Positions 17,901 through 47,808 of a stretch of DNA of 56,548 nt are shown here, piece after piece (the first letter of the stretch is position 1; each line of letters opens with the position of its first letter). The DNA is from a virus. Lineage: Duplodnaviria; Caudoviricetes. The DNA is taken from positions 1 to 56,548 of IMG/VR virus record IMGVR_UViG_3300042154_001807. One strand, written 5' to 3'. Both the position numbers and the translations under genes were made by a program. Below the pieces are notes generated by a model. The model was not told where the DNA came from. It saw only the letters and a program-made list of their open reading frames with translations, and searched no databases.

Positions 17901-20900
17901 GAAGTGTTTATCGATAGCTCGAGCAATAACTTCTTTGGAGATATTTTCTCCGTCTTCACGACGTTGCAATAGGTCTCTAACGATCGGTGAGTAAACTCTT
18001 TTCTTTGGAGTGACAGTAGTGCTAGGGAACTTAGGGTTGCCCTCATACTTCGCCATCACTTCATCGTATTCGGAGTAGAGTGATGCTGCGGAGTTTTTGT
18101 TAGTCTTAGAAACTTTTGACGCAGCAAGCCTTTGAATATTGCCAGCATTCTCAGCATCTTTAGCCTTCTTCCCATCTTTACGAGAATACCATCCATTGTA
18201 GTTTGGATCGTAAACCATAAACACAACGTCAGGTCTTCCGTTATTGTAATCCTTAAAAACTTCGTAGTCCCAGTCCTCTGGCTTGAATTCTTCAGAGAAT
18301 GGAATCCTTGACGCTACAACGAAGCCATGATTGGCATTGAATTGCGGGAGGATTGTGTCAAAAGCGTCAAGCTTTCTTCCCCCAGCAGTTATGGCAAGTG
18401 CCAGCGCTGCGCTACCAGAAGTGGATCCTTTTCTCGAGAACAAAGAAACAATGTCCCCATCATTTTTGATTGCCATTCCAGCTGACCCGTCTTTCGACAG
18501 GAACAGTCTCATGCCAGCATACTCTTCAGCAGAATATGCATGGACTGCGGCACCGTATTTCGATTCTTTCTTGGCAATAGTGATCAGGTCTTTAAACTTC
18601 GTGGCATTAGTAGAGTCCCCAGCCTGAAGCTCAACGAACTGCGCTGGTGTCATCCCAGATGTTCGGTAAACATGGCTAAACTTTGCGCTAGGTTTCCATT
18701 CTGTTTCATAGCTAACCCCAAGGTTCTTCAGAACCCGAACTCGCTTGCCATCTGCTCCGCTGATTCCCGAGTAAGCTGGGGATTTTCCGCCATCGCGCGA
18801 GATATCGGATCGCGCTCTTCTAACCGCGAGAGATTGGATAAACCTCCGCTTTTCGATTGAAGTAAGCTCTCCAGTTTTTCTCTGCTCCCCTTGAAGTTCA
18901 GTTCCAACTTCTCCATCGCTTTGTTGTGCTGCTGTTGAGCGTCCATATTTTTTTAGTGTGTAATTAATTTTTCTTTGTGTGACACCCTTCTCAAGCACCA
19001 GTTTTACTGCTGCGTTTGCGTAGTCTGGCGCTTCGGTGTCATCATAGCCTCCAGCCTCTTTCACTTCAAGGTTTTTATCTTTGGCATTTTCATAAAGGCG
19101 CTTTTCAGCATACCATAGAACTGCCTGTAAATCCGCCATTTCAAGGTTTTCGAAACCTTCTATTTTACGCATTTCTGTTAGAATATTGCCAAAGATTTCG
19201 CGAATGTAATTTCGCTCATTAGGACCGCTCGGCGCTTCTTTCTGACCATCCAAATACTTCGTGTAATTGTTTGCTGTTTTGCGAAGTTTATTTCGAACTG
19301 GCGAAGACATCATCATCTTCCTCTTTTCTTTTTTGGTTGACAATTTAGTCAACTTAGCTGAAAGATCCTCAAGAGAAAGATTGGACAAGGTTGACTCGGT
19401 ATCCGCCGCAAGTGCATTGAGACCATCCTCTCCAATAGCGTCCAGAGCTTTCAAAAGATTCTGGCGCGAATCCTCGACCTTATCAGGGACATCGTCAATA
19501 AGTGTTCCAGTCCACCTTCCCCATGTGCGAACCAACCAACGATCCATTGTTAATGCGTCGAAGTATCCATACAGGTTAGAAAAGAAACCATTGCCTACTT
19601 TAGGACCAATAATAGCAGATCCTCTAACAATTGTCGCAGAATGTTCACCCGTTGGAGTTAGAGACTTCTGAATACCTCCGATCTCACCCACGGAGAATTT
19701 TGTCTGCATGAACGCTCTAAGGTTTGAAATGCCCCACTCTTTTTTTAGAGAGTTGAACAACTCAAGCGACTTATTAATTGAGTCCTGTGAATTACCAGCA
19801 AGCAGATTGCTCGGCATGAGACCAGTGCTTTTGTATTCAGAATACACTTTCTCTGCGAGTTCAAAATTCTTGTTAACTTTTTGACCATTAGACGTGCAGG
19901 CTAGTGCCCAGATAAACGCAAACTTAGAGTCTTCGTCAGTATTTAGCTCAGGGTGCAGTAGCCCCATTACTCCGATAGCTTGCTTCGTTTTTTCGTCATA
20001 CCATCCAACCGCATTAGGATTTTGCTTGATAGCAAAGAGAGCGTCATTGAGTCCCACTCTCGATAGATATTCTGTCAGCTGGGGAGAGACTAACGAAAGG
20101 TTTACTCCAGCAGCTTTGGCAGCATCAAGAACAGCTTTCTGCATGGATATTTTCATATCACGACCCCGTGCCCAAGCCTTGCTTCCAGCGAGAGCAATAT
20201 TCGATTGAATGCTTGAAGCTTCGTCCACTGACATTGGGATGTCTTTTTGAACCCCTGCCTTCAAATCCTCTCCATTGGTCTCAGCCTCTTCGTCGCTCTC
20301 AGAGTCTAGCGAAGCTGCATTATTCTTGGCTCCTTCAAGCTCAGCCTGAAGAGCAATCATCGGAGCATCAACATCAGGGTCGCCAGTCATAGCAAATTCG
20401 ATAGGCAGCAACGTCGCTTTCTGAACCGCAAAATCACGTTTTTTAGGACTTAGGTAACCTTCGTCACCAGCGACCTTCAGAGACCCGTCTGCGTTGCGCA
20501 TTTGAGGACCTTCGTTGACCCATGAGTTCTGACCACGGGTCTCAGTGGTAAGTGCCCACCGTGCCCAAGGATTATCGATCGTGCGAGAGTGAATAGCCCA
20601 AGCAGCTTCCTCTCCAATAGCTCCGAACTGGTCAGAAAACAAACCGTGCGCGAGAGTGTCATGCACTGCTCGGAACATGTCATTGTAGAGGATTGGCTGA
20701 GTCTTGCCGTCTGCGTCAACGTAGGTGAGACCAGTGTCCTGTAGCAATGGGTGCGAGCTAAAATCGGATCCTTCAGGACCGAACGCTGATGGATCAGTTT
20801 TAAGGACACGTAGTCGGTTGCCACGTATATCCGCAACCGCTTCTCTCGATGAACCGTAAAGATCTCCCATGATCTCTTCACCAGTCTGAGGATTTTTTCT

Positions 20901-23900
20901 AACGTAATTCTCGTATTGATACCGAATCCCGTCCTCACCTTTAGTCATCGCGACATACTGATTGTAGATCTCCTTCTGAAGCTCTTCATATGCCTTGCGC
21001 ACATTTGGGTTTGCAAGGTCATCAGTCTTAGCGGACTCGTAAGCATCCGCAATCTTCATCTTGTAAAGTTGGAACGTCGGAGTGTAGTCCTTACTGGTGA
21101 CGTAGCTGCGCTTAGCAGCAGGAGCCTTGAACATCTTGCCCACCATTTCAGGCAAGCGCTTGGTGAGCCGACTGATTAAGTGCGCGGCACCGTCACGAAC
21201 CTTATTGTCTTGGTAGTTGGTGATTCCGTTGGCTCCGTCGGTGTTGGCTTTTGACCAGACTCGGATTTTCCGCCTGCGTGTGCTAAGATTTGCTGCTCCG
21301 CCTGCGCCCACGTTAATTTGGTCGTAGAAGGATTTGACTTGCCTTGTGAATTTTTCAGGGTCTGTTCCATGATGTTTTAGTGTGTAAAGTTCGATTGATC
21401 CGTCTGCGTTAACCGTGAGACCTTGGATGCCTGCACTCTTACGTGCTTTTTCGATTTCGTCAATTGAAACCTTCGGTGCGCGGATCACAGATACCAATTG
21501 GTTCTGCGTCCCATCATCGTTGACTTCTCCAAGCTGATCATCAGAAATGTTAGAGTCATCGCTAATTTCGTGCATCTCATACTGTTCGAATAGTTCAGCG
21601 AGATCCGCCATTCTTGCTCGGATCATTGGAAGGTCGGAGTCGTTTTTATAAGCGATAGAAATCTGACTGCTTGGCTCAGAGTAAGCAGCTTCGCTCGGAC
21701 TGTTGGCAAACCATCCAGTGGAGTCCTTGAACCTAGCGCTAACACCTTTCAAGTCAGACAATGCATGAGTGACTGCGATCTTCGTCAGCTCCGCAACCTC
21801 ATTAAACTTTCCATCTAACATTTTCTGTTTGATCGACGGAATAGCTTCGGTAGCCACCGTGAAGTTGAAACTTGTCTTTTTGGAAGGCTTAGTGTCAGCG
21901 TCGAGACCTGCGGCGTTGTTCTTGTATGATCCTCGAGCCTTCGCTTGTTCTGGACTTATCGTTGGCAGAGATGTCATTCCCAGTTGGTCAGCAAGGAACG
22001 CGCGGTGATGACCATCGTCGAGAGAAATAGTCCCGTCAGGCAGTGATGAGGTAACGATAGGAGTGGTCTCAAGAAACGACTTCAGAGCTTCAACTTGCGC
22101 TGGGTTTCCTTTTACTGATTCGAGAACTGCTTTAAGATTCGTGTCGGAGTAATTTTCTCCCGTTGCGTAGTTGATAATTGCCACGGCACTTTCAGCCGTG
22201 AAACCTTGGTTCCCAATCTGACCACGACTGTTTTTCAAGTCTGAAATATTCACTCTCTCTGATGAAGCGTCAAGCGAAGCAGCAGCATTCGGAGAGGACT
22301 GAGCAACAGCTCCAGCGATGGCGATACTTGTGGTTTTGTTCCCAACCTTGATCAGCATGTTAACGTCACCAATGCGAATGATTTCGCCAGTAACTTCTTC
22401 ACCGCTACCAACTCTTGACACGACCTTTCCAGTAACGACCTGACCGATTTGGAAATTGTTAGGGGTAGACTGCTGAGCGTTTGGATCCATCGCCTCAAGA
22501 TCCTTGAGAGCTTTCTGCAACAAAGTAATCTCGTTTTTCATCTCGTCGGACAAAGCGTTATCGCTCGCCATCGACTTCAGAACCTTGAGCATCGCGCGTA
22601 AGTTCTTGATCACCTCTTCCTTTGCCTTTGTCCAAAGCTTAGCGATCTCGGTCGGTGAAGCGTCAGCGTTCTGCTGCCACATCATCCTGATACCTTCGAC
22701 AGCTTTCTGCCAGTCTTCCAAGCTATCGAATCCTTTGCCATACAGGTTGCTGACTACCGAGTCATTTCCAGTGTCGACGAACTCTTTTTTCCATACTTCT
22801 TTGTAGTATGATTCGCGCCACTCCTTGAATGGTCTTGTGTCTCCAGACTTTTTGTAAATCTCTTGAGCGGCACGATACTGCGCGACGTGACGAAGCTCTT
22901 CGTCGATAACTTTCTCGATCCACTTCAGTGCCTGAGCCTCGGTCATACCAGACTTCAGTGCATCTTCCATTAGACGATCAGGGTTGATCGTTATCAGTCC
23001 TTCGTCTTCATATGCTCGGTCATTAGGGTCATTTGAAATTGTTAGGACAGATGCCAGTCCCTTGCGTTTTTTGCGGATCTTCCTAACAGCTTTATTCGCG
23101 GGAGAAAGATTGGCTCGAATAGCTTCAACGATGTCCGCAGGGGTCATGTCGTCGGTCACGGTGACTCCGTTCTCCGCAGCCACACGTTTTAAATCGTCGA
23201 CCGTCCCAGTGAGTGCCCCGTTGTCGTCGATGCTATCCAGCAGCTTGTTAGCTTCGCTGTTAAGCCCGACCTGAGCTTGTTGGTTGTCCACAGGTGTCGC
23301 AGAATTTGCATCTCCCGCAGGGTTGCCTGCGTTCGGAGGATTAGCGGTCCCACCCTGACTATTCGCTCCCGCACCTGTGGACACCAAGGGGGTTACTGAG
23401 GCGACTTTATCGCCCATCGCAAATTGTTTGGCAGCGATCACCTGAGCATCGGCTTCGTCCTTCGCCTCCACTTCAACACTCGCACCGCTCTCGCTGGTTA
23501 CGGTGAACTTCTGCTTCGAGAACTTCGCCCGAGCCTCGCCTTCGGTCATCGTAGCGATGCCTTTGGCTGACGGTGCCACGTCTTCCATTTCTACCAGAGC
23601 AGCGTCAAGCAGGACTGGTTTGCCGTTGACCATTTCGACCATCGGTGGGTTTGGTGAGCCTTCCAGCGGTGTTCCGTCGCGATTGATTCCAAGCGCAGCA
23701 ATTTCTACTGCGGTCAGTTCGTCAAGACTCTTGCCCTGAGCCAGCTTTACGGCACCAGAGACGCGATCAGCGACTTCGGGGGCAGCAGCCCTCACGCTCT
23801 CGATCTCGCGCAGGACGGCAGCATTCTGTGCAAGTTTGTCTGGGTCTTCCAGATCAGCACCCATCTCCGCAGCTTTGCGCTCTTCTTCAGCCGTGAGCGG

Positions 23901-26381
23901 CTTGCCACCGTTCTCGACAAGCTTGGCACTTGCTTGGTCACGGACGGAGAACCGAACTTGTGGCAACACACCACCAACGAGTCCGCCAAGCATTGCGGCT
24001 TTGAACGACTCTTCAAGCAAATCACCTAGCTTCATGTCTTTACCAAGCGCTGCCGTGGAAATAATGCCGTCGAGCATTTGGTTGATTCCCTCTTCCAGTG
24101 CTTCATCAGTAGCATCAGCAAACATGGTTTTACCAATCTGCTTTAACTCTGCTTTCAAACCAGCGTCTTTGATTGCCTTGCGACCGCCTTTGCTTAAGAA
24201 ATCCAACACGGTCATCGTTCTGGCGGCTCCACCAGTGACAATCCGTTCAGGACCACTAGGAAGCATGCGATTCAGCAATGCCGTTTGTGCGCCATTACTG
24301 AACGCTGCAATGCGGGTTTCTTTGCGACCAAGCACTTCCGCAATTTCGTCGTTAGTAAGCCCACGACCAAATTTCTCTTCCTCAAGATTTACTGCATCTT
24401 GATACTTTGATCCTGCTCCTTGTAAAAACGATGTTCCTTCTACTGCTGCGACACGGGTAATCGCTGCGGCTAGTGGCTTTAATCCTCGTGCCACGGCACC
24501 ACCAGCTAACATCGGAACCATCTGCGTAGCGGTGTTTGCTACATCGCCAAATACGCCGTAAGCACCAGTCAGTCCTCTGTTTACTTGAGTCATTTGACGA
24601 CCTTCAACGTATTTACTCAATTCATTTGCCGATTGCCCAACGCTGCCTGCAATCTCATCAGCGCCTACGAGCGACGCAAAGCCAGCAGCCACATTTTTCC
24701 CTGTGCCGATGATTCCATACGCACCGTTCGCAATCTCATTGAGAACAACGTCCGCAAATTTCACGATCGGATTACGATCTGTCATGCTTTTGCGCCATTC
24801 GTCTAGCAAGGCAACGTCATCAGTGCCTTTACGCTCATCAGCAAACGCCTTGAAATCATAGTCAGCAGAATAGAGTTTGCCCTTCAATTCTTTCGCCATG
24901 CCTTTACGCATCGCATCAAGTCGCTCTAACGCTTCACCTTGCTTCTCGGCATTGTTTCCAGTTGTTTGGATCTTCTTTTTCAGCGCTTCATTGTCGCCAA
25001 AAATCAAAGCTGGATTGAACGCCATGCTTCCAGTTGAAAGCTCTCGCACGCTGTCCGTGGTGTCTGCCGTCCATGCGTATTCTTTTGAGGCATCTGAAAT
25101 AATGCGGTCCGCGTCATCGCCAAGTGATTCTTGCAGTTGCTTTAGTTTTGGCAGGTTCTTTTGCGCCATTTCTTTCCGCTCCAATGCTGCTTGCTCACCT
25201 CCGCCCATGTCAGCACCAAGTCCACCGCTATAAACGGCATCAGCGGTCATATCGCTCTCCGCACTGGAAATGGCTTCTTTTAATGTTTTATTGCGCAACA
25301 ATGCACCGATTGAAGCGCTGTCTTTGCTATTACCAAAAATTTCATTAAAGAAATCTTTACCTTTCTGATAAATCCCCTCTTCTTTTCCTGCAATGGCTTT
25401 CGACTGTGAGCTTACGCCAAGAATCTTAATTGCGGACTGTCTTTTTTTTGCCTCTTCGTTATCTTTACGAAACGTCGCAATGTTTTTTCTTTGTGCTGAG
25501 ATCTCTGCTTTCGCTGCCGCTATTTTTTGAGGATCAGCATTGCCAATTTTTTCAGCTTCTAAGACACGCTGATCCGCTGCGTTCAAATCATTGTCGTAAT
25601 CGTCAAGCGTCTTTGGCTTGTTCGGATTAGCCTCTTGAAACACTCCGTTCGTCGTAGTGCCATATCCTTCGGTCGGGTTCAGAACCCCAGCAGTCACGCT
25701 GGATCTGCGCTGTTCTACAAGCTTCCGCTCTTCTGCTACCTGAGCCTTCTCGGCAGCGTGTGCGGCAAGGTCTTTTCCAACAATGCCAGAAGCCTCGCGC
25801 TCAGCGATCGCGGTCTCGCGCTCTTTCAGTTTTTCATCGACAGTCGCCACAGAGTTGAGACGCGCCCTCGCACGCTCTTCACGGTATCCGTTGACACCCA
25901 TCGACCCAAGTTCTTGGAGGCGCTTTTTAGATTCCCATTGTTCCTTTTCTTTTGCTGCCAACTCATCGTCCTTGATGAGCTTAGCCTTCAGCTCTGCATG
26001 AACTGGATCGATTTCTTGAAGACCAGAACCAGTAGTAAGAATTTCTTCGCGTTCTTTCGCTGTAAGTCTTTGACCCTTTTTTTCAGGGTCTGACAAATCG
26101 ATCTCAAGCTGATCCATCTTGTCGCGCAATGACTTCGCGTCACGCTTAAATAATGCTTCAGTAGCAATTCCTCCATAAACTGGATCGTCCTCTAATCCTT
26201 CAGCGTCACGATCTTCCCACAACCCTCCTCCTAAAGAGAACTTCACAGTCCCGAAACCAGCCTTTGCCGTCGGTGTTGCCATTTCATCGGCAATTATTTT
26301 TTCCTCGCTCCTGATCGCTTCTTTGTTGCGTTCAGCAAAACCTGAGACATTGACGTTTCGTTTCCAGATAGGTGGTTGCAT
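11925..26381 (-). CDS. Giant (4818 aa) polyvalent protein, probably an internal virion/ejected protein
   Basis: Motifs seen: metallopeptidase-like EELRH, ParB-like DDGHHR, RAVHD..AH/EEAAW, GWY/TMDRW/QAVLW, GNAT-like GGRKLDAFD, ART-PolyVal-like NQIKSADPVTYDD, FIEEIQSD. Confidence 0.8.
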   Translation of the reverse strand: MQPPIWKRNVNVSGFAERNKEAIRSEEKIIADEMATPTAKAGFGTVKFSLGGGLWEDRDAEGLEDDPVYGGIATEALFKRDAKSLRDKMDQLEIDLSDPEKKGQRLTAKEREEILTTGSGLQEIDPVHAELKAKLIKDDELAAKEKEQWESKKRLQELGSMGVNGYREERARARLNSVATVDEKLKERETAIAEREASGIVGKDLAAHAAEKAQVAEERKLVEQRRSSVTAGVLNPTEGYGTTTNGVFQEANPNKPKTLDDYDNDLNAADQRVLEAEKIGNADPQKIAAAKAEISAQRKNIATFRKDNEEAKKRQSAIKILGVSSQSKAIAGKEEGIYQKGKDFFNEIFGNSKDSASIGALLRNKTLKEAISSAESDMTADAVYSGGLGADMGGGEQAALERKEMAQKNLPKLKQLQESLGDDADRIISDASKEYAWTADTTDSVRELSTGSMAFNPALIFGDNEALKKKIQTTGNNAEKQGEALERLDAMRKGMAKELKGKLYSADYDFKAFADERKGTDDVALLDEWRKSMTDRNPIVKFADVVLNEIANGAYGIIGTGKNVAAGFASLVGADEIAGSVGQSANELSKYVEGRQMTQVNRGLTGAYGVFGDVANTATQMVPMLAGGAVARGLKPLAAAITRVAAVEGTSFLQGAGSKYQDAVNLEEEKFGRGLTNDEIAEVLGRKETRIAAFSNGAQTALLNRMLPSGPERIVTGGAARTMTVLDFLSKGGRKAIKDAGLKAELKQIGKTMFADATDEALEEGINQMLDGIISTAALGKDMKLGDLLEESFKAAMLGGLVGGVLPQVRFSVRDQASAKLVENGGKPLTAEEERKAAEMGADLEDPDKLAQNAAVLREIESVRAAAPEVADRVSGAVKLAQGKSLDELTAVEIAALGINRDGTPLEGSPNPPMVEMVNGKPVLLDAALVEMEDVAPSAKGIATMTEGEARAKFSKQKFTVTSESGASVEVEAKDEADAQVIAAKQFAMGDKVASVTPLVSTGAGANSQGGTANPPNAGNPAGDANSATPVDNQQAQVGLNSEANKLLDSIDDNGALTGTVDDLKRVAAENGVTVTDDMTPADIVEAIRANLSPANKAVRKIRKKRKGLASVLTISNDPNDRAYEDEGLITINPDRLMEDALKSGMTEAQALKWIEKVIDEELRHVAQYRAAQEIYKKSGDTRPFKEWRESYYKEVWKKEFVDTGNDSVVSNLYGKGFDSLEDWQKAVEGIRMMWQQNADASPTEIAKLWTKAKEEVIKNLRAMLKVLKSMASDNALSDEMKNEITLLQKALKDLEAMDPNAQQSTPNNFQIGQVVTGKVVSRVGSGEEVTGEIIRIGDVNMLIKVGNKTTSIAIAGAVAQSSPNAAASLDASSERVNISDLKNSRGQIGNQGFTAESAVAIINYATGENYSDTNLKAVLESVKGNPAQVEALKSFLETTPIVTSSLPDGTISLDDGHHRAFLADQLGMTSLPTISPEQAKARGSYKNNAAGLDADTKPSKKTSFNFTVATEAIPSIKQKMLDGKFNEVAELTKIAVTHALSDLKGVSARFKDSTGWFANSPSEAAYSEPSSQISIAYKNDSDLPMIRARMADLAELFEQYEMHEISDDSNISDDQLGEVNDDGTQNQLVSVIRAPKVSIDEIEKARKSAGIQGLTVNADGSIELYTLKHHGTDPEKFTRQVKSFYDQINVGAGGAANLSTRRRKIRVWSKANTDGANGITNYQDNKVRDGAAHLISRLTKRLPEMVGKMFKAPAAKRSYVTSKDYTPTFQLYKMKIADAYESAKTDDLANPNVRKAYEELQKEIYNQYVAMTKGEDGIRYQYENYVRKNPQTGEEIMGDLYGSSREAVADIRGNRLRVLKTDPSAFGPEGSDFSSHPLLQDTGLTYVDADGKTQPILYNDMFRAVHDTLAHGLFSDQFGAIGEEAAWAIHSRTIDNPWARWALTTETRGQNSWVNEGPQMRNADGSLKVAGDEGYLSPKKRDFAVQKATLLPIEFAMTGDPDVDAPMIALQAELEGAKNNAASLDSESDEEAETNGEDLKAGVQKDIPMSVDEASSIQSNIALAGSKAWARGRDMKISMQKAVLDAAKAAGVNLSLVSPQLTEYLSRVGLNDALFAIKQNPNAVGWYDEKTKQAIGVMGLLHPELNTDEDSKFAFIWALACTSNGQKVNKNFELAEKVYSEYKSTGLMPSNLLAGNSQDSINKSLELFNSLKKEWGISNLRAFMQTKFSVGEIGGIQKSLTPTGEHSATIVRGSAIIGPKVGNGFFSNLYGYFDALTMDRWLVRTWGRWTGTLIDDVPDKVEDSRQNLLKALDAIGEDGLNALAADTESTLSNLSLEDLSAKLTKLSTKKEKRKMMMSSPVRNKLRKTANNYTKYLDGQKEAPSGPNERNYIREIFGNILTEMRKIEGFENLEMADLQAVLWYAEKRLYENAKDKNLEVKEAGGYDDTEAPDYANAAVKLVLEKGVTQRKINYTLKKYGRSTAAQQSDGEVGTELQGEQRKTGELTSIEKRRFIQSLAVRRARSDISRDGGKSPAYSGISGADGKRVRVLKNLGVSYETEWKPSAKFSHVYRTSGMTPAQFVELQAGDSTNATKFKDLITIAKKESKYGAAVHAYSAEEYAGMRLFLSKDGSAGMAIKNDGDIVSLFSRKGSTSGSAALALAITAGGRKLDAFDTILPQFNANHGFVVASRIPFSEEFKPEDWDYEVFKDYNNGRPDVVFMVYDPNYNGWYSRKDGKKAKDAENAGNIQRLAASKVSKTNKNSAASLYSEYDEVMAKYEGNPKFPSTTVTPKKRVYSPIVRDLLQRREDGENISKEVIARAIDKHFPSYKVPVPKSMKDLPSQNKVLAAVTKDKRKAHEATVDLGMPTAGEIVTVRQDVPAMTENGVGVVTTTSKNGNLYLPAVRILNPDFQVREKPTLKIALGGEKGPHIVIKGAWMADQSMPADLKNWTQVGFNPDRHSYYYERGTNKPVIKGEEAFQIGNTVFVRVPEYGKARNFNFAASLDTDYLAAVAGGDMETAQRMVDEAAREAGYDVERYHITPYTFTQFRTPSEFTDEAGMQRLKDTYPKENSMRVFIRAERVGEISGNLADDKVAVLQFAQDNNLDAVTVGSNWGDLDDIIVINPNQIKSADPVTYDDNGNVIPLSQRFNPKTDNINNAASLDTEVAPFYSQLSQVIDQKMPSMSNIGQVMQIAMQNAKAEEVKWSGLQQALTTMQDDKGKVTKEAVLRYLNNEGVVRFEESNRGYDQAEEKRKEDTRSARVEIADLRTDLWSRSLGQRQLDVLSAEAQEGEGVVDDYLNLLSKKYPEEAEKLKRFTELARLIGRSDKLDPPSPRYSQYVLEGGKNYREVVLAMPIGKPWEVFNPVDGVAVASFDTEAEAKAEASRLDSGYDYGKTTDKGGSTYRSSHFPDIPDYVAHMRLNERDNGLFIEEIQSDRHQEGRKKGYRGELLMFGGKVEAYTPDGYSWAKTIKPKSSSVTHQLVRDSDGVVVAEGAIKIEVLRKSGLTASVADAPFRSTWHLALFKRALRDAVASGKTWIGWTTGETQNDRFDLSKSISEIAYWKEDDGWGIGALDLNGDAVMDQEYAKDANALESMVGKELAQKIVNDEGGDGQDYQSRYLNRRTGKLEEGVKVFTGDDLRVGGSGMKGFYDNMLVKDIGKYVKQWGGKVEKASLRNPDKRATVQYKQVAQEMFGRPASELNDSELRQVLTETSKRESDANSTPIWRVDITPEMRATVKGKGQALFAANLMDEDRAKDLLDQQAEFGNAVKPPNRASMGNENTRRVVDAFDIEYEERRETETREQWVKRGKKLANSDRKGLIENAIANATGAVGAVPLRPEDIVGTQIVIEQMVQEAGNDYDKLLEAGVVIQSYRKMRSDVARVLASGWDRLMKPDERNRRFLSNAILTLPAKVAASIDRKYLSPAQAKAEIRKKLQDRLTEIEKALKEYGVTINEVLGKQVYMSLDKSGIVRDIMKDSSKNEALAMRMHAQHSSAEQIAKATRMTVSEVEKLIQKVYNEALERMKEKVRGGATLENSGLGAASVMSEAEIEAEARRMVEVGLGISPRAHSPSTKALARKVKPAPTAPQKVNWARPEFTSGLLNYTFDSKDLVDIKQNVQALVDATAAKAKVESIEDPVKRANAEKMLASIEAILKKYGTDISTVVASGKPLESYRFDITDRMHVHLISNAIRSVDADWIDKATEYGYFSLLSGLQTMMVNASSVVHGAFDATIGRGFEIMLNAFINNPMNATLGETKYMLKAMGPMLSRAKSNFIASYGAEAAFFEQDILGVPPDLESILEGHGMYHRTAISGKKGRFLRIPTRLLLATDEYVKVINAMTEVGAMAYRICRAGGLKPDSKAFDDKMKELVNVTGSLAWQLAAQKAYTRTFTGAMPSQKDQATGEVRPVRTSGEAIGSVVAKVQSAIAPSNNENMLVKLNKTLFRMMFFPFVKIPYNITALALTYTPLSLIDVATLYVQSMGIKTPEKKMQAKAEVIERMSRVMIGGVITSLLLGIGEGDDDDLDKPILVTGSRSYANTKKGVREAAQRLGLDAYSISWKLPNGKRGVFHYGRYEPVATIISSTVDTLKQFKQAGKGRQTYGDAVSASTRAFADQLSDKTFLSGLGNFYKTIMGEQSMSKFVADKIAMLVPNLIKQPLRELDPYYRAKADTIDEEILAAVFPYGIRQAKVDIYGEKSEKLGTPITRLFDFTDSGSVEVNKVDEMLWRYQQKNPDGETLPSEAGGSYTPVKGKGQVAMTDTQARIYRERAGTNFTNIVRGRSFNYADPTDEDIKNLQKIIEVSRASALTSLKRDPNWK

Positions 26382-28415: not shown

Positions 28416-28493
28416 TGGTTGTAGGGGTGGAATTTGAATCCACATACTCTACGTCATGAGCGTAGCGTCTTACCAGTCGACATTCACCCTGCT
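28416..28493 (-). tRNA. tRNA with CAT anticodon (Met/fMet/Ile2), atypical acceptor stem
   Basis: Anticodon arm CTACG-CTCATGA-CGTAG, T arm GTGGA-TTCAAAT-TCCAC, encoded ACCA; mismatches at pairs 1:72 and 3:70. Confidence 0.8.
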
Positions 28494-31663: not shown

Positions 31664-32188
31664 TCACTCGTCCGAATGCACCCATGGGCAGCACTGTCTC
31701 AGCCGTCTGGCTGGGTGCCTGAGCTTCCTCAGTGCCCGTGCCTCCACCTGACGGATGCGCTCACGGGTGACGCGCAGCTGACGACCTATCTCCTCGAGGG
31801 TCCGAGAGTATCCGTCACCGAGACCGAACCGAAGGACTAGCACCTCGCGCTCACGGGGCAGCAGAACCGACATCTGATCCCAGATGAATCTGGTATCGAT
31901 TTCAGAGACGCTGTCACCACAGTAATGGCGCTCCTCAGCAACCTGCTGAGCCTCGTCGCAGGACAGGTCTACGACCAGTATCGAAGCGTCGACAATGACG
32001 TGCCTGAGACCTAACGCCTTCACTATCTTTCGTGCTTGAAGCACCGTCGCTGGGATCCTCCCGTGCATGATGTTGTCCATCACCGTCACCGCTATCCTCG
32101 ACTGTCTGGAGAAATCCTCCCAGCTCAGTCCCGTCTGATGGATCGCAGCCTTCAGCGCTGCGTTCTCGCTCTTTGTTATTGTGTTCAT
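31664..32188 (-). CDS. XRE-like HTH fused to sigma-70 region 4
   Basis: C-terminus [50 protein letters not shown] is RpoD region 4-like; no region 2. Confidence 0.85.
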
Positions 32189-32859
32189 CTTGTTAGAATT
32201 GTTTTCACGCTGCTCATTCCCCAGTCGCCACCTTGACGTGTTGGGATTGCCCGAGCGTTCAACTCGGCTGCGATCTTCGCGTAGCTCATGCGCTTGTCCT
32301 GACCTACTGGTTTGCGACGAAGCGAGCGCATCAGGTCAATGATGTCCTGCTCTCCTGCGTTGAACCCATACGGCTTCTGACCCTCGCACTTGCCTGTCTC
32401 TTCACGCTTGCGCTGCCGTGCCGCGCGGAGCTTGCGGACCAGACTGTTTTTCTCCAGCTCAGAGAACACCGCTTGCATCTGGATGATTGCCTTCTTCATC
32501 GGATCTCCCTGAATCGCAGCGGTGATGTCTTCACCAGTGTCGGCAGAGATCAACGTGATGCCTTTCGATGCGAGGAACACCAAGATAGCGTCCTGCACGA
32601 CGTAGGCTCGAGACAGACGTGTCAGGTTCTCAACGATGATCGTGCGAACCCCGTTGTCGAGGATCGCTGAGATCATGTCTTGAAACGCTGGACGGTCACT
32701 CCACGTTGAGTCTCCAGTAACACCCTCCTCGACATACTCGGTCGAGATGGTGGCTCCCATCAACTTCGCCTGACGATCGATAGCTGCACGCTGACGGGGG
32801 AACCCGTCGCCTTCGATCTGACTTTTCCCGCTAACTCTGAGGTATGAAAATGCTTTCAT
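32185..32859 (-). CDS. Serine recombinase (resolvase catalytic domain plus short recombinase DNA-binding domain)
   Basis: YLRVS catalytic motif, 'DRPAF', 'LTRLSR', 'PYGF', '[16 protein letters not shown]'. Confidence 0.9.
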
Positions 32860-36725: not shown

Positions 36726-37001
36726 ATGAGTGAAAAAGAAATAACAACAGACAACGGTGGGTCGGCGTTTCCAACAACTGGCTTCGATAGCCCAAATCAT
36801 GGGTGGCAACACGGGCAAGAAGGTATGACACTACGCGACTACTTCGCGGCGGCGGCTTTGACTGGAGAGGTTGGCGGCGAAGATTTTGGTGGTGAGCTAG
36901 CACAACTAAGAAGCCATGAAAACGCAAGGTTGATGGCGAGGAGAGCATATATGCTAGCGGACGCAATGCTGGCAGCAAGAAAGGAGGGCAACCAGTCATG
37001 A
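36726..37001 (+). CDS. Conserved phage protein with GG.AFP / GMTLRDYFAA / AY..ADAML motifs
   Basis: Widespread small phage family recognised by its motifs; start MSEKEI. Confidence 0.75.
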   Translation: MSEKEITTDNGGSAFPTTGFDSPNHGWQHGQEGMTLRDYFAAAALTGEVGGEDFGGELAQLRSHENARLMARRAYMLADAMLAARKEGNQS

Positions 37002-37630
37002 GAAACGTAAACTGTCCGAAGACAAAAATCTACGTTCGCTGCGATGCGTTTGGTGGGTCTCCTGAAGAGTTTGAACCAGCGTGGTTGGTGTCCGTAAGAG
37101 CGATGCGTAACCGACCACTATGCTTCCAAGCATGGATTGAAAAGTATGCAGCGTGCTACGACAAGATTCCACCTCAGTGTATCTACTGGTATAAGCCTGA
37201 CGCAGACCACAAAGCGCTACCACTTCACAAGATACAGATGTGGGAGTGCCTCTCTGGATCTATCGAAATTTGGCGAAAGGATCAACTCAACGATGTTCCG
37301 ATGCTAGTGAACCTCGGAAAGGGTATGGATCCAATCGGAGGTCATTATTGGTTTACTATCGACTTCCTGCCCGAAGGACAGGCTCAAGGATTGTTTGACG
37401 TGGGCGACTCCGAGCTGCTCGAAGAACACAAAGAAGGTAATGTGATCAAACTGGACAACGGGCAGATTGCAATCTACCCAAACAACCGACTCAAATGGCT
37501 TCCAGTATCTCTGACAGGAAAAGAAGCACCGAGCGCAATTCCTCCGTGGGATGTGGCAACCAACGCCCAATGGGACGAGTGGTGGGCAGACTCAGACGAA
37601 ATCTTGGGGGACGCAAAATGGGCATATTAA
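36998..37630 (+). CDS. Conserved phage hypothetical protein
   Basis: 'FTID...SE...EHK..N.IKLDNGQ.A.YPNNR..W' pattern recalled from aquatic phages. Confidence 0.7.
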   Translation: MRNVNCPKTKIYVRCDAFGGSPEEFEPAWLVSVRAMRNRPLCFQAWIEKYAACYDKIPPQCIYWYKPDADHKALPLHKIQMWECLSGSIEIWRKDQLNDVPMLVNLGKGMDPIGGHYWFTIDFLPEGQAQGLFDVGDSELLEEHKEGNVIKLDNGQIAIYPNNRLKWLPVSLTGKEAPSAIPPWDVATNAQWDEWWADSDEILGDAKWAY

Positions 37631-38388
37631 AAATTATGAACGCAACATACGGACTAGAATTATTCGAACTCGCACTCCGCAAAGAGACCGAGTCAATGAC
37701 CGAGGCAGAGAGAGCGGTATACGCTCAGCTGTCCGAACACCCAGTCACTCAGAAGCAGATAGCTGAGAGTGAGCGCTGGATAGGCACACACCCTTGGCAT
37801 GATGGATACGAGTCGGACACGACTACCAGAGCTGTTAGGCAGATAGTTCAGGATCTCAGGACCAAGCACAAGGTGCCTGTGCTGTCAGACCGTCGTGGCT
37901 ACTTTTTCAGTAACGACGAAGAGCAGCGTAAGGCATTTCTCGAGAGGCATGTCCGCAGTGCGACAGCGTCGATGAAGACATCGATCGAGACATACAATTC
38001 GATGAAGCACATCGTCGGAGAGCATGCATTTTTTGAATCGATGTTAGAACTCATAAACCGTGAAGACAACAGCCAAGCACAGGAAAGCCCAGCGTTGCCT
38101 GATGCGGGATGTTCGGACACACCGAGAACAGATGCTAAAATGTTTCCCGCATGGGCATGGGACACGCACACAATGGAATACGTGCCTCACGGCATCGGAT
38201 TTCCTGCCGAGGATGCCCGTAAATTAGAGCGCGAACTAGCAGCAGTCACCGAGCAGCGGGACACGCTGGCAGAGGCACTCCGAAAACTAGCTGATTGCGA
38301 TTGGGTAATTACACTGCCAGATCGGATGGACGCAGTAAGAACTATCGCCAACGAAGCCCTCCAATCCATAACCCCGAACGAACTATGA
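37618..38388 (+). CDS. Winged-HTH-like protein fused through an attC-like site to a TPRTD/ARKLERE module
   Basis: 'TTRAVRQIVQDLR...VLSDRRGYFF'; the segment NSQAQESPALPDAGCS is encoded by 38064..38117. Confidence 0.6.
   Translation: MGILKIMNATYGLELFELALRKETESMTEAERAVYAQLSEHPVTQKQIAESERWIGTHPWHDGYESDTTTRAVRQIVQDLRTKHKVPVLSDRRGYFFSNDEEQRKAFLERHVRSATASMKTSIETYNSMKHIVGEHAFFESMLELINREDNSQAQESPALPDAGCSDTPRTDAKMFPAWAWDTHTMEYVPHGIGFPAEDARKLERELAAVTEQRDTLAEALRKLADCDWVITLPDRMDAVRTIANEALQSITPNEL
38064..38117 (-). mobile_element. attC-like site A (54 bp, inner stem slightly decayed)
   Basis: Minus strand: TCCGAAC-ATCCC-GCATCAGG-caacgctgggcttt-CCTGTGC-TTGGCT-GTTGTCT. Confidence 0.75.
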
Positions 38389-38795
38389 ACACAGACACAC
38401 CGAAAATAATACAATTACTAATGTCACCGAATGACTCCGTATGGCAAGGCGTGTTGCTTGGTCTTGGAGATGATGGAGTTACATATCATTGCCAAGGGGA
38501 TACATGGCAACCTTACATACCTCCGTTGAATCCACAAGATAAAGCAGCCGAGCTTGCCTCCTTCACCGAGCAGCGGGACGAAGCGCGAATTGAATTAGAG
38601 AAATACACAACTGACAGCGAAGACGATGCGCTTTATAACGTGCGAAGATTGCGTAAAGAACTAACCGCCGTCACCGAGCAGCGGGACGAAGCGCGTCGCC
38701 TTGCCGAGAAATACCGCCACTTATCATGCGACAGCCTAGAGGAAGCCGATGAAACGCTGCTGCCTTGGGAAATAACAACCCCGAACGAACTATGA
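38385..38795 (+). CDS. Hypothetical protein with TEQRD repeats
   Basis: Probable start MNTDTPK, ATGA-coupled. Confidence 0.6.
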   Translation: MNTDTPKIIQLLMSPNDSVWQGVLLGLGDDGVTYHCQGDTWQPYIPPLNPQDKAAELASFTEQRDEARIELEKYTTDSEDDALYNVRRLRKELTAVTEQRDEARRLAEKYRHLSCDSLEEADETLLPWEITTPNEL

Positions 38796-38841
38796 ACACA
38801 CCAACCGACTCCGAGGCGTTGCCTCTCACGACTTGTTCGTC
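38780..38841 (-). mobile_element. Partial/hybrid attC-like site C
   Basis: R''-L'' arm GACGAAC-AAGTC-GTGAGAGG-CAACGCC is nearly identical to site G, but the matching L' is missing. Confidence 0.55.
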
Positions 38842-38974
38842 TTGTTTGAATTGGGAGCCACGCCAGAACAGCGGCATTGGTGACGGATACTGCCAGATCT
38901 TCGATAAATTCACCGATCCTGACCACGGCAAACGCTGCACCGCATTTGAGCCGAACGCACAAGCAAAGCCATGA
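38792..38974 (+). CDS. Small Cys-rich cassette protein
   Basis: MNTPTDSEALPLTTCSSC..W...GYC...C..F; starts and ends inside attC-like sites. Confidence 0.6.
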   Translation: MNTPTDSEALPLTTCSSCLNWEPRQNSGIGDGYCQIFDKFTDPDHGKRCTAFEPNAQAKP

Positions 38975-39080
38975 GCCATTGTGAAAACATCGACGGAAAG
39001 TGCGGAGCGTCGTGGTGTGACTGCGACTATCAGCGGCGTAAAAAGTCAGTTGGATCATTGGCTTCTGCGCCTTGTTCGCG
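38950..39080 (-). mobile_element. attC-like site D (131 bp)
   Basis: Minus strand: CGCGAAC-AAGGC-GCA(G)AAGC-CA(A)TGA...TCATG-GCTTTGC-TTGTGC-GTTCGGC. Confidence 0.8.
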
Positions 39081-39333
39081 GTTGCGGATACCTCGCCACC
39101 TGCTCGAACTGCGCATTCGCAACGCCATAGCCGACAAGGAAATGGTAACGGCGATGGCAAACCGTGACCTGCAATGCGGGGACGGGTGGCGGTGCGACTA
39201 TGCCGAGTGGCATCGTGAAGTCTCAAAGGAGATCGAGGAACTATTCATTCTTTCCGCGAACAGCCAAGCACAGGCACGCCCAGCGTTGCCTGATGCGGAA
39301 TGTTCGGAACAACCAACAAACGAAACAAAATGA
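38971..39333 (+). CDS. Hypothetical cassette protein
   Basis: 120 aa; starts inside site D and reads through site F. Confidence 0.6.
   Translation: MSHCENIDGKCGASWCDCDYQRRKKSVGSLASAPCSRLRIPRHLLELRIRNAIADKEMVTAMANRDLQCGDGWRCDYAEWHREVSKEIEELFILSANSQAQARPALPDAECSEQPTNETK
39255..39308 (-). mobile_element. attC-like site F (54 bp)
   Basis: Minus strand: TCCGAAC-ATTCC-GCA(T)CAGG-CA(A)CGC-TGG-GCGTG-CCTGTGC-TTGGCT-GTTCGCG. Confidence 0.85.
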
Positions 39334-39689
39334 ACGACACACCGACACCGAGGACGGATGCTGAACACGCTCAATTTCCGATGGGAGGATTTACGTTAGA
39401 CTTTGCCAGAAAACTTGAACGCGAGCTTGCCGCCGCACGGGAGGAATTAGCCGAACTAAAGGCGGAATACGGAACGTGGTGGGCGCAGAAACGCATCGCA
39501 ATTGATGAGCTAAAGGAAGTCACCGAGCAGCGAGACAGGCTGGCTGAGGAGTTGAAAAATATCAAATGTGCTTTTTGCGGGGAAACGCAACAAACAGAAA
39601 ATGAAAAAGCATATTGCCAAGAGTTTAGCAATACACTAGGTGAGTTACCAACTATGGCTATGTGGCTACTAACTAAAAGGAAGCCATGA
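39330..39689 (+). CDS. TPRTD/ARKLERE-type coiled-coil protein
   Basis: Probable start MNDTPTPRTD, ATGA-coupled. Confidence 0.6.
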   Translation: MNDTPTPRTDAEHAQFPMGGFTLDFARKLERELAAAREELAELKAEYGTWWAQKRIAIDELKEVTEQRDRLAEELKNIKCAFCGETQQTENEKAYCQEFSNTLGELPTMAMWLLTKRKP

Positions 39690-39840
39690 ACCTAGAACTC
39701 TGGCAAATCGTCGGCAATCAAGGAGGTGATCGATGAGCGACCAAAGCATAAAACTGTTAGAAAAGATCCTCGACAAGGCAAAATCTCTAACGAAATAGAA
39801 CTTTCTTTCGTTGTAGAATATAGGATTTTGAAAATACTTG

Positions 39841-39890
39841 TTTACAACGGAAGCGTTTTTGTTATGTTTCGTTTGTCGCCGCGAGCGACA
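39841..39890 (+). promoter_or_regulatory. Early promoter P2 plus leader hairpin
   Basis: TTTACA-16-TATGTT, then TGTCGC-CGCGA-GCGACA. Confidence 0.55.
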
Positions 39891-39915
39891 CCAACAACAC
39901 TAATCAAAACACATT

Positions 39916-40164
39916 ATGAAAACTACAATCATCCACGTCGATCACCGCAAAGTTGAAGTCGAAATCAGAAACGCTCCAAACGGTCGCAAGCTTGTAATCG
40001 CTATTCGCGATGCGGGTGCATCGGAAATGTGGGATCAAAAACCTAATCCGATTGGCGCATATATACGCCAGCAGTGGAATAAAACTTACATCTACAAGCG
40101 TTGCGCGGGATGGGTATCCCTAAGCGCATCGCAAATTGGATTTCTTGACGAAATTACAGTCTAA
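39916..40164 (+). CDS. Small early protein
   Basis: 82 aa after P2. Confidence 0.65.
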   Translation: MKTTIIHVDHRKVEVEIRNAPNGRKLVIAIRDAGASEMWDQKPNPIGAYIRQQWNKTYIYKRCAGWVSLSASQIGFLDEITV

Positions 40165-40216
40165 CTAATTCAAAAACAGGGGCGCGGCTGAATACGCGCA
40201 ACCGAAACACAAAATT

Positions 40217-41753: not shown

Positions 41754-41793
41754 AACCATTTTAGAATATAGCGAAAATAAATGAAAATAATTA

Positions 41794-41821
41794 TTTACAT
41801 CGGAAGTATTTTCGCTATGAT
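41794..41821 (+). promoter_or_regulatory. Early promoter P3
   Basis: TTTACA-16-TATGAT with a CGGAAGTATTT spacer like P1 and P2. Confidence 0.55.
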
Positions 41822-42301: not shown

Positions 42302-42538
42302 ATGAAAATACTAATTGCCAACATCCCGATCGGTCTTCGCCTTGCTCTCAAGGCTGGAGAATTCGCAGCAATCAGACTCAGCTCTGGAGCAAACAACAGT
42401 GTCTTGATCAGAGACGGTCGAGCCTACCAGTTCGAGAACACGATGCGCAGCAAGATGCCGTCTTTGCCTGCGACATCGCTACCAGTAAAAGTAAAAAGAG
42501 TCTCAGAAAAATCTATCACATTCGACCTATTGCCATGA
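42302..42538 (+). CDS. Hypothetical protein
   Basis: Probable start MKILIANIP. Confidence 0.55.
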   Translation: MKILIANIPIGLRLALKAGEFAAIRLSSGANNSVLIRDGRAYQFENTMRSKMPSLPATSLPVKVKRVSEKSITFDLLP

Positions 42539-47292: not shown

Positions 47293-47365
47293 ACTATCAT
47301 AGCTCAGAGTAGAGCAGTGGGCTTATAACCCATTGGACAGTGAATTAACGACTCACTTGGTAGCT
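47293..47365 (+). tRNA. tRNA-Ile(TAT)-like gene with a non-canonical T loop
   Basis: D arm GCTC-AGAGTA-GAGC, anticodon arm GTGGG-CTTATAA-CCCAT, T stem AGTGA/TCACT without TTC; no encoded CCA. Confidence 0.6.
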
Positions 47366-47465
47366 GTAATAAAATCCACACGCCTTGCCGACGTAATCGG
47401 CTAACAATTTACAAAATTATGAACAAAGAAAAACAAGAAGATGCAATTGCGATTGCAACGGGATG

Positions 47466-47551
47466 GGAGAACGCCTCTGTGGAGGCACGCCAATAACGAC
47501 TATGAATACACCAACCAACTCCGAGGCGTTGCCTCCCACAAATTGTTCTCG
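47466..47551 (-). mobile_element. attC-like site G (86 bp)
   Basis: Minus strand: CGAGAAC-AATTT-GTG(G)GAGG-CA(A)CGCC...GGCGTG-CCTCCAC-AGAGGC-GTTCTCC. Confidence 0.85.
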
Positions 47552-47789
47552 GCGTTGCTCGCCGCAGCTATCTAGTTCCGAAACTACGGCATACCGCGCG
47601 GTGGTCGTTGATGCCGATCAAGACGTAATCTGGACGCGAGACGCTCAAAACAACGTCATCGGCTACACGATTACTAACCCAAAGCCCGTCGCGGGTATGA
47701 GGCACATTCTGGACGATGGGAGTCTCTCTGCGCTAGATGTCCAAATTCATTGCGAGAACAGCCAAGATCAATCAGCACGCAGTGACTGA
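47502..47789 (+). CDS. Hypothetical cassette protein
   Basis: Start MNTPTNSEALPPTNCS lies in the loop of site G; the stop lies inside site H. Confidence 0.6.
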   Translation: MNTPTNSEALPPTNCSRRCSPQLSSSETTAYRAVVVDADQDVIWTRDAQNNVIGYTITNPKPVAGMRHILDDGSLSALDVQIHCENSQDQSARSD

Positions 47790-47808
47790 TTGCATCGACA
47801 TGTTCGAT
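47753..47808 (-). mobile_element. attC-like site H (56 bp)
   Basis: Minus strand: ATCGAAC-ATGTC-GAT(G)CAAT-CAG(T)CAC-TGC-GTGCTG-ATTGATC-TTGGCT-GTTCTCG. Confidence 0.85.

Follow-up and report, generated by a model that had tools for sequence, protein, structure and literature searches.

The window analysed here, the whole 56,548-nt stretch of DNA from a lake-water phage (Caudoviricetes; IMG/VR record IMGVR_UViG_3300042154_001807), contains small genes with integron-type folded sites inside their coding sequence. Its + strand holds five complete hairpin sites (A, D, F, G and H) together with one 3′ half-site (C), and these are listed with the genes around them in Table 1. An earlier sequence-only reading had correctly picked out A, D, F and G as sites but had missed H; it had also assigned G to the interval 37618–39689, outside which it in fact lies, and had counted C as a complete site. 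A BLASTN search of positions 36900–40200 against public phage records gave no match, and an Rfam search of the window returned only two tRNAs.

Table 1: Hairpin sites in the window and the genes that contain or adjoin them.
Feature	Position	Strand	Description
ORF 37636-38388	37636-38388	+	Reads through site A; N-terminal domain joined to a TPRTDA/VTEQRD coiled-coil domain
Site A	38068-38117	+	Short-loop attC-like hairpin; linker within ORF 37636-38388, translated end to end
ORF 38385-38795	38385-38795	+	Small gene with two VTEQRD repeats (family D1); stop/start junction motif ...PNEL at its end
Half-site C	38782-38839	+	Apical arm, bulged T, 6-bp arm, bulge, 3 nt, spacer, TGTTCG; codes for the N-terminus of ORF 38792-38974
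ORF 38792-38974	38792-38974	+	Small Cys-rich gene; start within half-site C, end within the 5′ arm of D, where AAC is Asn
Site D	38954-39077	+	Long-loop site; stop of ORF 38792-38974 and ATG of ORF 38971-39333 both in its 5′ arm
ORF 38971-39333	38971-39333	+	Gene of the 305-nt unit from the AAC of D to the AAC of F; tail and stop from site F
Site F	39259-39308	+	Short-loop site; codes for the C-terminal tail of ORF 38971-39333
ORF 39330-39689	39330-39689	+	TPRTDA/VTEQRD gene; starts 24 nt 3′ of site F
Site G	47470-47548	+	Long-loop site; 5′ arm is the end of small ORF 47420-47497
ORF 47502-47789	47502-47789	+	Starts in the loop of G, ends in H
Site H	47757-47806	+	Short-loop site; ORF 47502-47789 takes its tail and stop from it; helicase gene begins 13 nt downstream

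The window also encodes a PDDEXK exonuclease and an AAA_24 protein. Across the five near-complete phages that carry such elements, only the VTEQRD family (four of five) and the PDDEXK exonuclease (three of five) were held in common, with no recombinase as common partner enzyme. The C-terminal domain of ORF 37636-38388 occurs in L136 as a separate gene with its own ATG (95% nucleotide identity from 38116 onwards). When the D–F cassette was sought elsewhere in IMG/VR, a relative was found only for the F-encoded tail (residues 97–120) of the ORF 38971-39333 protein. By eye, Shine-Dalgarno sequences are not visible before these genes.

Inverted core triplets, AAC and GTT, bound an imperfect palindrome in A, D, F, G and H, and the stems are unchanged while the loop measures 3 nt (A, F and H), 37 nt (G) or 80 nt (D). 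Sites A and F are 50-nt copies that differ at three positions, a match seen in 0 of 100 shuffles; two C-to-A changes weaken the stem of A relative to F, for which the DNA fold scored z −3.47. Site H has the same ends as the other sites and a different but compensated inner stem, giving the fold architecture of F. R1, the short-loop model, recovered F, H and A at 74.5, 68.5 and 64.7 bits, and its next match in the window scored 9.2 bits. A strict structural descriptor gave three matches on the + strand, none on the − strand and none in reversed or shuffled sequence; D (with both bulges present) and G fitted the descriptor with no mismatches and H with a 7-bp middle stem. A scan of folding energies between AAC and GTT was dropped, as it did not separate real from reversed sequence. 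No 5′ arm of C was found in the window, and its fold was no better than those of shuffles (z −0.37 and −0.14). The half-site shares 91% identity with the 3′ portion of a complete L135 site, and in other lake-water contigs a complete 5′ arm precedes the same 3′ part (loose ends at 38789).

This site family occurs in at least 54 IMG/VR phage records. Covariation was counted on an alignment of 84 matches (75 distinct) that had itself been fitted to the structure: 94.2% of cells pair, compared with 74.7% in shuffles and at most 37.6% when the alignment is slid, and both sides have changed in 217 cells, compared with 79 in shuffles. Inner stems are of more than 15 different types; the three pairs that hold the AAC/GTT letters keep their commonest pair in 73–75 of the 75 distinct rows. 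The layout reads AAC, 5–6 nt, 3 bp, 6 bp, apex, loop, bulged T, 6 bp, bulge, 3 bp, 4–5 nt, GTT, with the central spacer unpaired both in folds and in the family alignment (5–6 nt on the 5′ side and 4–5 nt on the 3′ side). Its arrangement of 3 bp, bulge, 6 bp and bulge on the 3′ arm fits 66 of the 75 distinct members. The two single-base bulges lie on the 3′ arm, separated by 6 bp, or by 7 bp in two members; at the apical bulge T occurs in 48 of the 66 members, C in 17 and A in one, and at the basal bulge T in 27, A in 22, C in 15 and G in two. Loop length runs from 2 to 39 nt among the R1 matches, and the short-loop phage subfamily has conserved boxes of its own, AACAGCCAAG and CGACCTGTTC. In GTDB representative genomes, a tighter pattern gave 32 stretches, six of them true elements; these six copies of the short-loop subfamily all lie on separate MAG contigs, four shorter than 15 kb. 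An initial, looser GTDB scan returned at least 120 stretches and was rejected, those that were folded looking like chance matches in coding DNA.

Integrons are bacterial platforms for gene capture, in which a cassette consists of a promoterless gene followed by an attC site. The family layout is the bottom-strand layout of two published sites, attC aadA7 and TJE1_attC2, as given in Table S3 of Qi et al. (2023; PMC9892861). A covariance model (R2) of chromosomal sites was built from eight sites that lie beside intI in Verrucomicrobiota arrays; it yielded 21 matches, 13 of them new, all on the bottom strand as predicted from the position of intI. A further model, R3, was built in this analysis from those 21 matches and contains host chromosomal sites only. 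Among 16 matches to R3 in the window, D (23.8 bits, E 0.0013) and F (21.8 bits, E 0.0039) came first and second, A third (11.3 bits), H fourth and G eighth (9.3 bits, a partial match), the scores of A, G and H not being significant alone. In other element-bearing phages R3 gave 11 matches at E < 0.1, all on the coding strand and the best at 35.8 bits. The converse search of host arrays with R1 gave weak matches only (best 14.8 bits, E 0.09), and a repeat search in the host loci produced nothing usable. The identification of the sites as attC-type, made in the sequence-only reading, is thus supported both by their geometry and by the match to a model trained on real integron arrays.

In some details these sites depart from what has been described for attC. 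The extrahelical G of the L box was called essential by Bouvier (2009); the basal extrahelical base is G in only two of 66 phage members, and in the eight host sites that fit the descriptor it is C (five) or T (three) and never G. The R′ box GTTRRRY has a purine as its fourth base, a position occupied by C in 61 of the 66 phage members and by G (four), C (three) or A (one) in the eight host sites. CALINs are defined, in the methods of Qi et al. (PMC9892861), as at least two attC sites at most 3 kb from each other with no integrase; with A, D and F within 1.3 kb, G and H within 0.35 kb and no integrase encoded, the window holds such clusters.

The orientation of the genes is a larger departure. 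A canonical cassette has a top-strand ORF that is directed toward its attC and ends at or before it, and the phage ORFs lie instead on the bottom-like strand, as the sequence-only reading had proposed. In the host array L328, ORFs lie on the strand opposite to the R2 matches. Since host genes are on the other strand under the same model, the phage cassettes are reversed relative to them. On this evidence we conclude that the sites are probably integron-type attC sites in reverse polarity, the phage coding strand being the one that folds as an attC bottom strand; the features that mark this strand, a pair of extrahelical bases in the 3′ arm and the triplets AAC and GTT at the 5′ and 3′ ends, respectively, would then all be carried on the coding strand.

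Reading phase at these sites is far from random: the upstream ORF reads AAC in frame as Asn in 47 of 56 contexts across phages (P = 8e-15 against one third), in line with the constant phase first proposed from this window. Translation through the sites was likewise as described, with A read as NSQAQESPALPDAGCS between the two domains of ORF 37636-38388 and F as NSQAQARPALPDAECS, the tail of ORF 38971-39333. Sites C (ATG 38792), D (ATG 38971) and G (ATG 47502, in the loop) each contain the start codon of the gene that follows; the loop and 3′ arm of D code for the N-terminus of the ORF 38971-39333 protein, and the 3′ arm of G for that of ORF 47502-47789. Cys-Ser at the 3′ box, TGTTC(G/T), is a property of A, C, D, F and G in the window and not of the whole family, several related sites reading Leu-Val by eye.

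The proposal that a fixed phase would let recombination create in-frame fusion proteins fared less well. Of 67 cores, 55 have a stop inside the site in frame 0, as against 24 and 8 for the remaining frames, so that the upstream protein usually gains only a short new tail. Among the 56 contexts, long frame-0 extensions past the site occur only at A (stop at +318) and in L239 (stop at +348); the latter looks like a chance match, leaving A as the sole convincing fusion. The usual effect is a swapped C-terminal tail, and fusion proteins are rare. With the phase of the sites fixed within genes, genes are apparently swappable as cassettes with their neighbours unbroken.

None of the 54 element-bearing records, this window included, encodes an integron integrase above the TIGR02249 cut-off, five of the records being at least 90% complete; weak tyrosine-recombinase matches were found in two of the 54. 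A complete integron combines intI and attI on the same replicon, and this phage, with no integrase, does not hold one. Among five MAGs that hold an element-bearing contig, three encode an integron integrase over the curated cut-off; this is not above the rate among Verrucomicrobiota genomes (39 of 151; P 0.11), and the host assignment to Verrucomicrobiota rests on MAG binning. A search of IMG/VR for viral integrases gave one weak match with a single query and 14 with a three-sequence alignment, and R1 found no match at E ≤ 0.1 in those 14 integrase-bearing viral loci. One phage contig, L340, does encode an integron integrase (287 bits, cut-off 265), and an array of genes on the + strand carrying such sites is found immediately upstream of the integrase gene. 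Over 87 nt, one of the L340 sites shares 93% identity with an L135 site that is itself located about 280 nt downstream of a 97%-identical copy of window site F.

Comparison between phages located the edges of exchange. In nine pairs the hairpin and the DNA downstream of it are common while the upstream DNA is unrelated, with the break exactly at (G)AAC; no pair showed the reverse pattern of common upstream and unrelated downstream DNA. A 76-nt unit that includes site F recurs, 99% identical, between unrelated genes in L136, and site G is 95% identical to L135 8428–8507 with unrelated flanks on both sides. Metagenome contigs diverge from the window at 39259, such joints having been used selectively; most were set aside, having short sides and falling between paralogous genes. 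Sites of this type also meet unrelated gene bodies at an abrupt 3′ edge at GTTC, and a single crossover at AA/C does not explain this.

Sharp edges of this kind could arise if the sites were simply patches of homology at gene boundaries, used by general recombination between co-infecting phages and no site-specific enzyme, in the manner proposed for PeSL cassettes of T4-type phages. High-identity patches between unrelated phages do start and end at the sites and at conserved gene starts, a crossover anywhere in a 10-nt conserved box would give the same sharp edge, and the frequent exonuclease family and the lack of an integrase in 54 records fit well with such exchange. Homology, however, needs no hairpin, yet the stems co-vary and the bulges on one arm are kept across more than 15 stem types; the breakpoints are asymmetric, nine pairs to none; and the sites match a model of intI-adjacent sites, with an integrase adjoining such an array in L340. 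We therefore regard general recombination at homology patches as a rather unlikely account.

A role in mRNA was also considered, in which a helix opened by the ribosome couples the translation of neighbouring genes, or the hairpin is a processing or stability signal, and the likeness to attC is convergent or ancestral. All members are oriented in the sense direction, stop and start lie in or beside the loop, the phase is fixed, and no Shine-Dalgarno sequence is visible by eye before the genes. Yet wobble pairs show no excess (G.T in 17 and A.C in 14 of 1173 cells), which points to DNA rather than RNA, and in host arrays the bulged strand is antisense to the genes, so there the fold is not a feature of mRNA. 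The loop varies from 3 to about 80 nt with the stem geometry constant, cuts in the stems of long-loop members would ruin both coding regions, and no T-run was seen 3′ of the sites, which, with coding arms, resemble neither terminators nor RNase III-type hairpins. An mRNA signal is thus an unlikely explanation. It is scarcely credible that the repeats are merely duplicated coding sequence (paralogous linkers and N-terminal peptides) with palindromy by chance: a TPRTDA/VTEQRD domain or gene does follow both A and F, and this protein family recurs in the window and is present in four of the five near-complete phages, but many phages have the same sites between genes that are unrelated, conservation is as good in the untranslated 3′ box as in the translated 5′ box, and the descriptor found nothing in reversed or shuffled sequence.

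Reversed attC sites remain our preferred identification, and from the sequences we infer that an integron integrase acts on them. Such an enzyme would cut between AA and C and would be supplied by the host or, in some relatives, by the phage itself. A cassette would then begin at the C of an AAC and extend through the AA of the following one, its own hairpin coming first and one gene or a few genes after it, with the gene start held by the hairpin or placed behind it. With the upstream AAC an Asn codon in nearly all cases and stops in frame, exchange would leave the upstream protein intact apart from a new short tail, and fusion, as at A, would be an occasional outcome. More tentatively, and with rather less confidence than an even chance would allow, we suggest that phages of Verrucomicrobiota and their relatives maintain a mirror-image cassette pool, moved by a host integrase or their own, in which the genes lie on the recombined strand, AA/C falls within a phase-fixed Asn codon, and each hairpin provides both tail and stop for the prior gene and both start and leader for the next.

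The same kind of site that bacteria use for gene capture is here built into phage genes in reverse, with a phase rule that spares neighbouring proteins. If an integrase acts on these sites, they would offer a defined and testable mechanism for the fine mosaic of phage early regions, an instance of host integrases exploited by phages and a natural viral case of phase-compatible shuffling of genes and domains; the coding overlap would place new constraints on the origin of attC, and standard integron finders, which expect top-strand genes, would under-report phage cassettes. Should the mirror-image pool exist, whole genes, and now and then domains, would be swapped phase-compatibly, much as in exon shuffling, and a cassette that crossed between a phage and a bacterial integron, in either direction, would be silent.

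A literature search found no printed description of such phage sites. The closest relatives are the phage CALINs of Qi et al. (2023; PMC9892861), reported from virulent and temperate phages, with integron components in 21 of 10,705 genomes. Both sets comprise attC-type hairpins that are spaced at intervals of a few hundred to a few thousand bases and lack an accompanying integrase, and both include DNA methyltransferase cassettes (here a C5 methylase in the L133 and L340 arrays). In the parts of that study drawn on here (PMC9892861), cassettes form typical arrays or point in divergent directions, and those parts contain no mention of genes on the bottom-strand side, sites within coding sequence or a fixed phase; the scale differs too, at least 54 IMG/VR records holding this one sequence family alone.

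Chromosomal Verrucomicrobiota arrays beside intI (L324–L329) have the same geometry, with spacers and inner stems partly alike, and in both settings sites of one type flank unrelated genes on both sides, as in sedentary arrays. They differ in that host ORFs are encoded on the top strand, with stops located at the site or slightly within it, whereas phage ORFs lie on the bottom-like strand and enter the site or start inside it. PeSL (promoter-early stem-loop) cassettes of T4-type phages are reportedly units of a promoter and a stem-loop in intergenic DNA. Like them, the present stem-loops are repeated, lie on either side of small accessory genes in an early region that is plastic, and coincide with mosaic joints; they also have attC geometry, coding overlap and a phase rule, none of which PeSLs are known to have. 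In class 1 integrons, short ORFs of attI1 and attC (ORF-11 and relatives) are leaders in canonical polarity that aid the translation of cassettes. The phage sites resemble these in that integron recombination sites are translated, here as the ends and starts of the cassette genes themselves.

The attC-like hairpins of the window, which carry AAC at the 5′ end and GTT at the 3′ end, are best explained, and with good probability, as reverse-polarity integron cassettes on which a host or phage integrase would act, a rule of reading phase keeping upstream genes intact after exchange. All the peptides listed for these sites by the sequence-only reading are present in the window. Sites A and F are 50-nt copies with three differences and both fold as imperfect hairpins (F fold z −3.47); searching with their shared ends revealed a third copy, H, with the same architecture and a different inner stem. 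R1, a covariance model built from eight copies of short-loop phage sites, scored F at 74.5, H at 68.5 and A at 64.7 bits, with the next match in the window at 9.2 bits. Long-loop junctions in related contigs share these ends and stems, and their loops of 33 to ~80 nt contain one gene's stop and the following gene's start. Site C has the 3′ arm alone and its fold is no better than chance; elsewhere among lake-water contigs, the sequence of C follows a full 5′ arm.

A constant reading phase had been proposed to yield in-frame fusion proteins. The phase is non-random across phages: with every row kept, AAC was read as Asn by the long upstream ORF in 47 of 56 unique contexts (P = 8e-15), with Ser-Gln next in the short-loop family. 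One of the 47, like several of the nine exceptions, seems to match by chance or has a stop immediately ahead of the site. Window sites D, F, G, H and A all obey the rule. A stop lies inside the site in the Asn frame in 55/67 distinct cores, the remaining frames having 24 and 8. Where a next ATG was found, it mostly falls within ~30 nt of the site. The fusions fared less well. Through A, reading continues into a TPRTDA/VTEQRD domain that forms an independent gene, start included, in another phage contig (L136); no other of the 56 contexts offers a convincing read-through fusion. Separately, the C5 methyltransferase of one cassette (contig L133) is divided between two frames, one for its N-terminal and one for its C-terminal half, reflecting a frameshift or an assembly error; solely the C-terminal frame runs into the site in the usual phase.

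Otherwise unrelated phages share with the window short patches of 87–99% identity that start or end at sites, as might plain homology patches serving general recombination. That explanation is unlikely given that the break is one-sided: among 1540 pairs drawn from the 56 contexts, nine had the hairpin and downstream DNA in common with unrelated upstream DNA and none had upstream DNA and hairpin in common with different downstream DNA, while 40 had the hairpin alone in common. In the nine pairs, identity starts exactly at (G)AAC. Under the integron reading, such left-hand breaks fit the crossover set out by Bouvier et al., the hairpin being part of the downstream cassette. Lake-water contigs from other runs have divergence points at 39259 and 38838/38839, the latter being where C ends on its 3′ side; the sharp 3′ boundaries are outside what that crossover, as set out there, explains and resemble sedentary arrays, in which one attC type stands beside unrelated genes.

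Search patterns were built from two conserved boxes of the element. The first recovered nine stretches from IMG/VR, four of them true, and a looser one 115; the first-pattern matches folded from GTDB genomes resembled chance hits. R1 found 1–6 copies in each of 54 records, all picked for carrying the pattern. Across 84 matches (75 distinct), in an alignment fitted to the structure and hence biased in its favour, pairing held in 94.2% of cells (74.7% in shuffles, ≤37.6% with partners slid) and 217 cells were changed on both sides (79 in shuffles); despite that fitting, more than 15 unrelated inner-stem types are directly visible. With a tighter pattern, true elements made up 6/32 GTDB stretches, on MAG contigs (4/6 <15 kb) titled Verrucomicrobia, Akkermansiaceae, Verrucomicrobiota, Planctomycetaceae, Glaciecola and an uncultured bacterium.

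For attC aadA7 and for phage attC sites recombined by IntI1, bottom-strand sequences appear in Table S3 of Qi et al. 2023 (PMC9892861). There, the 5′ half of aadA7 and TJE1_attC2 comprises an R box ending in AAC, 5 nt, 3–4 bp, 6 bp, apex and loop, and the 3′ half apex, T, 6 bp, G, 3 bp, 5 nt and GTT. This geometry fits 66/75 distinct family members, the apical bulge being T in 48 of the 66; the basal extrahelical base varies in the phage family and is G in only two. There is no excess of wobble pairs (17 G.T, 14 A.C, of 1173 cells), which argues for a fold acting at the DNA rather than the RNA level; an mRNA-level junction structure is, like homology patches, unlikely. Coding paralogy alone is scarcely credible, since a strict descriptor (AAC, 5–6 nt, helices of 3, 6 and 3 bp, then 3–5 nt and TGTT, with a single-base bulge in the 3′ arm after each of the last two helices) retrieved D, F and G on the window + strand, with no match on the − strand and none after reversal or shuffling. 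Allowing a 7-bp stem added H, at about one match per strand in controls.

The relationship to integrons extends to host arrays. An integron integrase exceeded the NCBIfam cut-off in 3/5 MAGs holding element-bearing contigs and in 39/151 sampled genomes of the first MAG's phylum; such integrases are common in this lineage, and the MAGs show no enrichment over the phylum rate (P 0.11). Beside intI, in 20-kb stretches from three such genomes, descriptor matches fell on the strand predicted to be the bottom one, and their inner stems and spacers resembled those of the phage sites. R2, a model built from eight of these host sites, returned 21 matches (13 new), without exception on the predicted strand and the intI-proximal side. 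In host array L328, ORFs lie opposite to the sites, one per site, as in canonical cassettes. R3, rebuilt from the 21 matches and run unfiltered over the whole window, placed D at the top (23.8 bits, E 0.0013) ahead of F (21.8 bits, E 0.0039), with A, H and G at ranks 3, 4 and 8 among 16. Its 11 matches at E<0.1 in other element-bearing phages were confined to the coding strand (best 35.8 bits). These E-values are rough. Together, these matches and the strand comparison show the phage sites to be related to integron attC sites, with phage genes on the strand opposite to that of canonical cassette genes, in agreement with the reversed polarity proposed from sequence alone.

No integron integrase was found in the 54 element-bearing records. 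An alignment of three host integrases identified full-length relatives in 14 IMG/VR loci. R3 matched nine times (E<0.1) in five of these loci, in each case upstream of the integrase gene and on its strand; R1 matched none of the 14. One such locus, L340, encodes an integrase scoring 287 bits (cut-off 265) alongside DnaB, a terminase small subunit and a C5-methylase, and genes between its sites lie mostly on the sites' strand, that is, in reverse polarity. One L340 site shares 93% identity over 87 nt with a site in phage contig L135, and the L135 site follows, at a distance of ~280 nt, a copy with 97% identity to window F.

The window, an IMG/VR virus record of 56.5 kb, is rated 95% complete, and blastn with 36900–40200 found no relative in public phage records. 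Its serine recombinase is possibly split or shortened, and its 20-nt A+T-rich repeats are possibly promoters. The TPRTDA/VTEQRD proteins, a small coiled-coil family with an N-terminal TPRTDA motif, one or more VTEQRD repeats and three window paralogues, form the only protein family common to 4/5 near-complete element-bearing phages, with no Pfam family above threshold. At a second junction motif, which may be a minimal or decayed site, the upstream gene ends in Asn-Glu-Leu/Pro, TGA overlaps the next ATG and AAC is again in frame.

Sites and other features in the window and compared loci
Feature	Position	Strand	Sequence
Site A	38068-38117	+	window
Site C	38782-38839	+	window
Site D	38954-39077	+	window
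Site F	39259-39308	+	window
Site G	47470-47548	+	window
Site H	47757-47806	+	window
ORF of 4818 aa, structural module, adjoining SU10-type portal gene	11925-26381	-	window
tRNA gene	28422-28490	-	window
Serine recombinase, 224 aa (Resolvase, truncated Recombinase domain), directly upstream of sigma-70 gene; span covers both genes	31664-32859	-	window
Sigma-factor-like gene, 174 aa, sigma-70 region 4, directly downstream of serine recombinase; span covers both genes	31664-32859	-	window
Block of small genes	~33.9 to 53 kb	+	window
VTEQRD/TPRTDA family	38233-38275, 38550-38592, 38658-38700, 39507-39549		window; also L285, L136
Second junction motif	38377-38393, 38784-38800		window
Second junction motif	~1040-1065, ~1260-1290		L285
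Second junction motif	~5085-5105		L136
20-nt A+T-rich repeat, three copies ahead of gene starts	39829-39848, 41782-41801, 42303-42322		window
tRNA gene, just upstream of sites G and H	47293-47365	+	window
C5 cytosine methyltransferase cassette between two sites	4897-5659		L133
Family member forming a near-perfect palindrome without unpaired spacer; R1 match on both strands	G008 22332-22395		L289
894-aa ORF with Hint (intein-type) domain, after terminase small-subunit gene	11025-13709		L340

Our literature search, of a kind that cannot prove absence, came upon no account of sites that are reversed, translated and phase-locked. The nearest published work it gave is Qi et al. 2023 (PMC9892861). 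Canonical cassettes carry their genes on one strand relative to the site, whereas the phage cassettes carry theirs on the opposite strand.
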